In this document: positions 59,851 through 60,102 of the stretch, in pieces
Numbering within the stretch: position 1 is the first letter of the stretch
Layout: every line of letters begins with the position of its first letter
Origin: Escherichia coli
Lineage (GTDB): Bacteria; Pseudomonadota; Gammaproteobacteria; Enterobacterales; Enterobacteriaceae
NCBI RefSeq assembly: GCF_041248615.1
Contig: NZ_CP158426.1
Strand: one strand, 5' to 3'
Length of the DNA stretch: 64,000 bases
The notes under the pieces: model-generated
What the model saw: the letters and a program-made list of their open reading frames with translations, nothing else
The model's database searches: none
What the model was told of the DNA's origin: nothing
Position numbers and translations under genes: made by a program

Positions 59851-60102
59851 ATGAAAATCAGAAATATTCTCGCTATCTCCCTTGCAACATCATCCTTCAG
59901 TTGCCTGGCATTTAAACCCTCGCCCAATGTGCTACCAGGACCAACGAATCAACTAACTGCGGTAGAAAGTAAAATTATCGGACATTTTTATGCCCCACAC
60001 AGTGCATTACCCGGAACAACCATCACAGGGACATGTGACGCCTCCCCCATTCCGGGATGCACCTGTCCGTTTTGTACTATGCTGCGTAGCCAAAACCGAT
60101 AA
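59851..60102 (+). CDS. Small secreted Cys-rich protein of unknown function (moron-like)
   Basis: ATG 59851 with upstream agagg; signal peptide MKIRNILAISLATSSFSCLA; mature region with CDASPIPGCTCPFC cysteine cluster. Confidence 0.5.
   Translation: MKIRNILAISLATSSFSCLAFKPSPNVLPGPTNQLTAVESKIIGHFYAPHSALPGTTITGTCDASPIPGCTCPFCTMLRSQNR

Follow-up and report, generated by a model that had tools for sequence, protein, structure and literature searches.

The 83-codon reading frame at positions 59851–60102 (plus strand, stop codon included) of the window, by which we mean the whole 64,000-nt stretch of Escherichia coli DNA analysed here, is a moron gene, routinely missed by annotation, in a lambdoid prophage of the phage 21 type. 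On balance, we think it somewhat probable that its product is an exported four-cysteine mini-protein which stems from a family of the zinc-starvation response, was captured as a moron and takes part in how the cell envelope deals with zinc or another thiophilic metal. The predicted pre-protein of 83 aa (MKIRNILAISLATSSFSCLAFKPSPNVLPGPTNQLTAVESKIIGHFYAPHSALPGTTITGTCDASPIPGCTCPFCTMLRSQNR) is read from an ATG-started frame and has homologues of the same length. As judged by comparative evidence, and not by its length, the frame is a genuine protein-coding gene.

The genes for Nu1 (58947–59495), the terminase large subunit (57047–59017), Rz (61921–62403) and the lysozyme (62385–62918) belong to the late operon and are located on the minus strand; the 83-aa frame is on the plus strand, opposite to all of them. 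By comparison with the lambda right end and the phage 21 annotation, the cosN cohesive-end sequence (aggtcgacgccc) was located at 59688–59699 and the adjoining cosQ region at 59700–59729. Because of these positions, the frame is placed at the right end of the phage chromosome. Its start is ~150 bp away from cosN, towards Rz, and it runs antisense to the late transcript. An earlier reading of the letters without database searches (the sequence-only reading) had described an 83-aa frame on the strand opposite to the phage late genes, in the moron slot between cos and Rz. The frame is present as described, and the cosN position and the neighbour coordinates bear out the slot.

Phage 21, phage ev017, Perceval and many E. 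coli prophages match the region with 97–100 % identity, and the host element is a phage-21-like lambdoid prophage. The GC content is 46.8 % in the frame and 46.6 % in the cos-to-Rz slot, compared with ~52 % in the terminase, Rz and lysozyme genes. Taken as sequence features, the slot position, the presence or absence among related phages, the lower GC content and the antisense strand fit a moron gene.

Length is no proof of a gene here because the window holds 148 ATG-started frames of at least 83 aa, counted over six frames. A protein search returned full-length homologues of the same length and with 58–70 % identity in E. coli, Salmonella enterica and Citrobacter koseri. Codon alignments of these diverged homologues indicated purifying selection, with dN/dS of 0.10–0.28 (Nei–Gojobori method; pN 0.13–0.23 versus pS 0.60–0.83) and with synonymous sites near saturation. 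Differences numbered 48–53 at third codon positions versus 8–14 at second positions; in one example, positions 1, 2 and 3 differed 19, 11 and 49 times.

We also compared the flanking DNA of the phage, Salmonella and Citrobacter contexts in an alignment that took in 260 nt before and 150 nt after the frame. Between these unrelated contexts, DNA similarity extended from the Shine–Dalgarno sequence (RAGG-N-ATCATCAR-ATG) to the stop codon. In the window, the Shine–Dalgarno sequence is GAGG at 59838–59841 (plus strand), 9 nt before the ATG. A longer version of 105 aa with its start at 59785 was rejected, as the cross-context similarity begins only at the Shine–Dalgarno sequence before 59851.

Disruption of the frame in close relatives had been named beforehand, in the sequence-only reading, as a sign that it is spurious. 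We did not see such disruption: all 10 sampled copies from phages and complete genomes, including phage 21, ATCC 25922 and ExPEC isolates, were intact at 83 aa, and so were all 35 close copies in IMG/VR, which differed by single substitutions only. This amounts to 45 intact copies out of 45, next to which a few frameshifted database variants exist (P0003, P0004, P0006, P0013 and P0015).

If the frame were spurious, its conservation would have to reflect a DNA-level constraint imposed by the cos packaging site or by an antisense feature of the late transcript. The short distance to cosN would agree with this, but the frame is kept at loci that have neither cos nor terminase, and the Rfam search gave no match for the region. 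The NCBI PGAP pipeline and the phage annotators did not call the frame, frames of its length are common by chance and frameshifted variants occur; the codon-periodic substitutions, the low dN/dS with near-saturated synonymous sites and the 45 intact close copies argue the other way. Moreover, the limits of similarity coincide exactly with the Shine–Dalgarno sequence and the stop codon. As far as comparative data can decide, a spurious frame is effectively refuted, and we give it next to no probability.

The 83-aa frame was unannotated in every RefSeq E. coli record and every phage record that we inspected. PGAP leaves the frame blank in RefSeq or calls a short minus-strand frame that overlaps its last 26 bases, and different frames are called in the curated phage 21 record and in other phage records. 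Some pipelines place doubtful overlapping frames where the 83-aa frame should be. The frame was found in 1230 of 5426 complete E. coli genomes (~23 %) and in phage 21, ev017, Perceval and the PhiR phages. Its recognition would give phage 21, a classical phage, a further real gene, and likewise ~1200 complete E. coli genomes.

Two small overlapping frames follow in the window, at 60077–60283 (minus strand) and 60198–60344 (plus strand), which different records list as hypothetical proteins (phrog_3744, phrog_4843). It is unlikely that both are real; the minus-strand one is the frame that covers the last 26 bases of the 83-aa frame.

Two other E. coli subtypes of the gene (P0005/P0007 and P0017) occur in the equivalent place. 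In other lambdoid prophage types (L003-5 and L015-16), the slot adjoins Nu1 and cos and the frame is antisense to the late genes. A remnant in E. coli (L008) has the frame upstream of iss. The gene is missing from lambda, where a DUF3950-type frame takes the corresponding place. In Salmonella, including the subspecies arizonae and diarizonae, the gene is part of an island with the order PPC–ORF–bor–omptin and no terminase genes nearby. Three of these loci (L009, L013 and L027) carry a strong Fur-box-like sequence, AAATGATAAATATTATCATTT, ~90–130 nt after the stop codon of the frame and before the bor homologue; its place in the island suggests iron control of bor.

In C. koseri (L012, 5046–5300), the frame is located between a lipid A acyltransferase gene and icd, and no other phage genes are nearby. 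The icd gene is the integration site of phage 21 and e14. The C. koseri copy adjoins icd and has retained a Zur-like box; it may be what remains of a prophage, or else the chromosomal gene from which the phage copy was derived.

The sequence-only reading had proposed a small secreted Cys-rich protein with a typical signal peptide, and this is supported by what can be predicted from the sequence. Residues 1–20 (MKIRNILAISLATSSFSCLA; 59851–59910, plus strand) form a predicted Sec signal peptide with an MKIR n-region, a hydrophobic stretch of ~13 residues and the end C-L-A↓F, where the arrow marks the predicted signal peptidase I cut after Ala20 and before Phe21. Ala20 and Phe21 are invariant among 26 family members, and position −3 is Cys in the window copy and Ala or another small residue in distant members. 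Sec export and cleavage by signal peptidase I at this site are thus the probable route. The peptide FKSSPNVLPGPTNQLTAVESK is an example from the product.

A fifth cysteine of the pre-protein, Cys18, is located inside the signal peptide, and its lipidation would make the product an outer-membrane lipoprotein similar to Bor and Iss. Cys18 is invariant in the subfamily of E. coli, Salmonella and Citrobacter, and the residues S-F-S-C satisfy, by position and preceding residues, the loose lipobox rule of PROSITE PS51257. In distant members, however, Ala, Val, Gln or Gly takes the place of Cys18, whereas Ala20 and Phe21 stay invariant, and position −3 of the putative lipobox is Ser and not Leu, Val or Ile. 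We therefore conclude that the conserved feature is the AxA↓F site of signal peptidase I and not a lipobox. The lipoprotein reading was rejected on the lack of conservation of Cys18 across the 26-sequence family alignment, and we regard it as highly improbable.

Cleavage at the predicted site would release a mature mini-protein of 63 aa (59911–60099, plus strand; ~6.6 kDa, pI 8.5). An ESxI..FY.xH segment marks its centre, and the last 24 residues contain the four invariant cysteines, in the arrangement C62-x7-C70-x-C72-x2-C75 (60034–60075, plus strand), within the motif G-T-C-x-A-x-P-V-P-G-C-x-C-P-F-C-T-M-L-R. The cluster had been noticed before with a first spacing of eight residues; the cluster stands, and the spacing is corrected, as seven residues separate C62 and C70. 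AlphaFold2 gave a pLDDT of 40 for the full-length protein (8-sequence alignment) and of 60 for the mature part (26-sequence alignment), the latter with two helices; both models are of low confidence, too low for a fold search to be useful.

When 1.84 billion representative proteins were searched with a profile, ~25 further clusters of 79–86 aa came up, all of them named 'hypothetical protein', from Klebsiella, Enterobacter, Serratia, Pantoea, Kosakonia, Phytobacter, Rahnella and Citrobacter. The search for related loci was run with a 10-sequence alignment. In the 26-sequence alignment, A20, F21, C62, C70, C72 and C75 were invariant and G60, P66, G69, L78 and R79 nearly so. Searches of Pfam (with the single sequence and with the alignment), NCBIfam, PHROG and, by sequence profile, the PDB gave no match, and full-text searches with peptide strings and for a Zur-regulated small Cys-rich protein returned no description of the family. 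The earlier statement that the product belongs to no known family is right for these databases; the product is nevertheless no orphan, as it is a member of a conserved Enterobacterales family of ~80 aa. From the sequences collected, this family is unnamed and confined to the Enterobacterales. We thereby define a family of small Cys4 proteins, predicted to be exported, for which Pfam, NCBIfam and PHROG have no model.

The family neighbourhoods all differ; a conserved partner gene was not found, and the gene always stands alone. Genes for modifying enzymes, which would mark a RiPP precursor of the bufferin/MNIO type, were adjacent in none of the family neighbourhoods. Two metagenomic sequences (P0034 and P0036; L036) encode long, low-complexity, eukaryote-like proteins with four to five repeats of P-[IL]-P-G-C-N-C-P-K-C-T-x-L-R, which is close to the PGCxCPFCTMLR motif of the family. 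They have no Pfam domain and are encoded on a 2-kb contig, and we treated them as a short-motif resemblance and not as relatives.

The zinc link comes from the chromosomal relatives. We scored the core TGTTAT-N3-ATAACA of the published Zur-box 23-mer, GAAATGTTATA-N-TATAACATTTC (PMC4219657), within 200 nt upstream of the ATG and compared the scores with 5000 shuffles. The core matched at 12 of 12 positions in Kosakonia, two Phytobacter species and L045, a score that no shuffle reached. C. koseri and L020 had 11 of 12 (reached by 4 of 5000 shuffles), and Citrobacter sp., Enterobacter sp. and Serratia had 10 of 12 (32–180 of 5000). In Kosakonia and Phytobacter, the full 23-mer matched at 18–20 of 23 positions and was the sole such site in each 8-kb locus. 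Some chromosomal members (Rahnella, L023 and L041) had no clear Zur box.

Gene neighbourhoods agree with these putative operators. In L020 (Enterobacter/Klebsiella), the gene is located beside aztD-aztC-aztB-aztA. The Pantoea copy is divergent from an operon of a dksA paralogue, folE2 and a gamma-carbonic-anhydrase-like gene, and convergent with the gene of a ZigA-type COG0523 GTPase, next to which is a Fur-family gene, probably zur. In L041, the gene is located 62 nt downstream of that for a heavy-metal P1B ATPase of the Zn/Cd type. As gene context, the three neighbourhoods point to zinc independently of the Zur boxes. At the level of the family, we take the association of chromosomal members with predicted Zur operators and zinc genes as shown. 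For Klebsiella, Enterobacter, Citrobacter, Kosakonia, Pantoea and Serratia, this gives a clear connection with Zur and zinc homeostasis that can be put to the test. A role in envelope zinc handling would be the most likely one for the family, and it follows from the apparent wiring of chromosomal members into the Zur response. Zur control is no proof of metal binding, since E. coli PliG is Zur-regulated and yet a lysozyme inhibitor (PMC4219657).

The case of PliG leads to the main rival, in which the four cysteines would form two structural disulfides and the product would be an exported, disulfide-knotted mini-protein that acts on a target, be it as an inhibitor or decoy, like PliG, of a host or competitor factor encountered under zinc starvation, as a toxin or as a signal peptide. 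In the periplasm, a protein with four cysteines is normally oxidised by DsbA, and the Cys4 motif may accordingly end up as two disulfides. In its layout, with a signal peptide followed by a variable middle part and a highly conserved, Cys-rich 24-mer at the C-terminus, the protein recalls pre-pro-peptides such as STa. The central helix motif is conserved too, however, so that the middle is no disposable pro-region, and the cysteine pattern is unlike those of STa and guanylin. That the gene always stands alone, without a conserved partner, and that the Zur regulon includes a non-metal protein, PliG (PMC4219657), would suit such a target-directed protein. Against this, three independent neighbourhoods consist of zinc or heavy-metal transport and chaperone genes, which better fit a metal role, and no similarity to any toxin or inhibitor family was found. 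We consider the disulfide-knotted protein possible but unlikely. The toxin-like or immunity-related role suggested in the sequence-only reading found no support.

The resemblance to the STa pre-pro-peptide and to guanylin is one of layout: a precursor of ~70–80 aa, a Sec signal, a less conserved middle, a Cys-rich C-terminus of ~20 aa and a place on mobile DNA. STa has six cysteines with another spacing, and guanylin has the pattern C-x2-C-x4-C-x2-C. The product of the 83-aa frame has four cysteines spaced x7, x1 and x2 and did not match the Pfam enterotoxin family even at E≤10. Unlike STa, its family conserves the central helix motif.

The second rival is a superinfection-exclusion or receptor-masking envelope protein directed against other phages or colicins, comparable to Cor and Llp and perhaps acting together with a lipoprotein with a TonB C-terminal domain that is encoded nearby. 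A small, presumably exported protein encoded as a moron on the prophage strand would suit this role, as would the neighbouring lipoprotein gene (60467–60847). But Cor and Llp are lipoproteins, and the product of the 83-aa frame is not. In addition, most loci with the frame have no TonB-like gene, and members of the family are for the most part chromosomal and unconnected with phages (Klebsiella, Serratia, Kosakonia, Pantoea and others). We regard this role as very unlikely.

The TonB-like gene (60467–60847, minus strand) occupies the same moron slot and encodes a lipoprotein of 126 aa with an LSALAVGC lipobox. PGAP names its product 'TonB family protein', whereas PHROGs lists an Rz-like spanin. 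It could interfere with TonB-dependent receptors.

The upstream region of the window copy differs from that of the chromosomal relatives. The best match to the Zur box was 12 of 23 positions, with 7 of 12 in the core, which is chance level; the copies in other E. coli prophages and in the Salmonella island, with 7–8 of 12 in the core, were likewise at chance level. As phage-borne copies have no Zur box, the zinc link of the window copy is drawn solely from homology. A perfect 12-bp palindrome (TGTGCCGGCACA; 59798–59809) is located where chromosomal relatives carry the Zur-box palindrome. The aligned site reads GTTATGTTATTACATAAC in C. koseri, GTTACGTGTTAACGTAAC in phages of the P0005 type and TGTGCCGGCACA in the window. 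The palindrome is positioned between a candidate −10 element and the Shine–Dalgarno sequence and may be the operator for another regulator.

The candidate is an extended −10 element, TGcTATTAT, read from the letters at 59790–59798 (plus strand). It is invariant in seven E. coli and phage copies, which are themselves nearly identical overall. A consensus scan found neither a full sigma-70 promoter nor a terminator for the frame; one match nearby overlaps the start codon.

A Fur-box-like palindrome of the 7-1-7 type (CGAGAATAATTATCA, two mismatches to TGATAATnATTATCA) adjoins cosQ at 59738–59752, 99 nt upstream of the ATG. It is the only such site in the window, where 0.11 would be expected by chance, and a site arose in 11 of 100 shuffles. 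Copies without a mismatch occur in the same place in L003-5 (5866–5880) and in lambda (L019, 2153–2167). As lambda carries the palindrome and lacks the gene, we did not assign it to the 83-aa frame. A secondary source lists nohB, a Nu1 homologue, among Fur-controlled genes (PMC9062578). The palindrome by cosQ may explain this listing or may control antisense morons.

Taken as a whole, the data are consistent with the following mechanism for the metal role. In the lysogen, a promoter of its own would drive transcription of the frame against the direction of the late operon, and translation would start from the GAGG ribosome-binding site. The pre-protein would leave the cytoplasm by the Sec route and be cleaved by signal peptidase I after Ala20, releasing the basic 63-aa mini-protein into the periplasm or the medium. 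There, the Cys4 site would bind, buffer or hand off zinc or another thiophilic metal in the cell envelope. Having apparently lost the Zur operator, phage copies would let the lysogen make the protein regardless of zinc status. We infer both the metal binding and any benefit to the lysogen. If it holds, a zinc role would add a new player to periplasmic zinc handling, and the gene would be a prophage moron that was taken from a host metal-starvation regulon and rewired, with a bearing on lysogen fitness under zinc restriction of the calprotectin type.

More doubtful is the further proposal that the family is a new, Zur-controlled zinc shuttle, buffer or scavenger of 6–7 kDa, periplasmic or secreted, with a zinc-binding Cys4 site, which lambdoid phages such as phage 21 captured and uncoupled from Zur and which helps lysogens under nutritional immunity. 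On this proposal, about a fifth of E. coli strains, ExPEC lineages included, would make the protein whatever their zinc status. We put this forward tentatively and think it unlikely in this specific form.

Of the known proteins, the Zur-regulated periplasmic ZinT/YodA, ZnuA and PliG of enterobacteria and the periplasmic zinc chaperone AztD are closest to such a role. Their likeness to the family consists in the Zur boxes or the aztABCD and zigA/dksA2/folE2/zur neighbours of its chromosomal members, and they are Sec-exported, as is predicted for the family. There is no homology, and the family, with 63 aa in the mature form, is far smaller. ZinT, ZnuA and AztD use His-rich sites, whereas the family offers four cysteines as candidate ligands, and the phage copy is without a Zur box.

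Bor of lambda and Iss of E. coli are encoded in the same slot between Rz and cos and on the same antisense strand as the 83-aa frame. In phage 21, bor is located 1.2 kb further along on the strand of the frame; in the Salmonella island and the E. coli remnant, the frame is directly upstream of bor and iss, respectively, on the same strand. Bor and Iss are small envelope proteins expressed independently of the late genes, and the same would be expected of the product of the frame. Sequence similarity is lacking: Bor and Iss have an L-x-G-C lipobox, whereas the product of the frame has the AxA↓F site and a Cys4 C-terminus. Serum resistance is the function of Bor.

The DUF3950/YlcI gene of lambda and DLP12 fills the equivalent place in lambda, as the first antisense gene after cosQ and the Fur-like palindrome. 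In L003-5, a DUF3950 gene is located just downstream of the 83-aa frame. The DUF3950 protein is unrelated: it is cytoplasmic and ribbon-helix-helix-like, with neither a signal peptide nor a Cys cluster.

Further along the window, a 95-aa frame at 61415–61702 (minus strand) matches only the C-terminal part (residues 139–230 of 233) of phrog_3527 and is possibly a larger phage protein in truncated or domain-only form.
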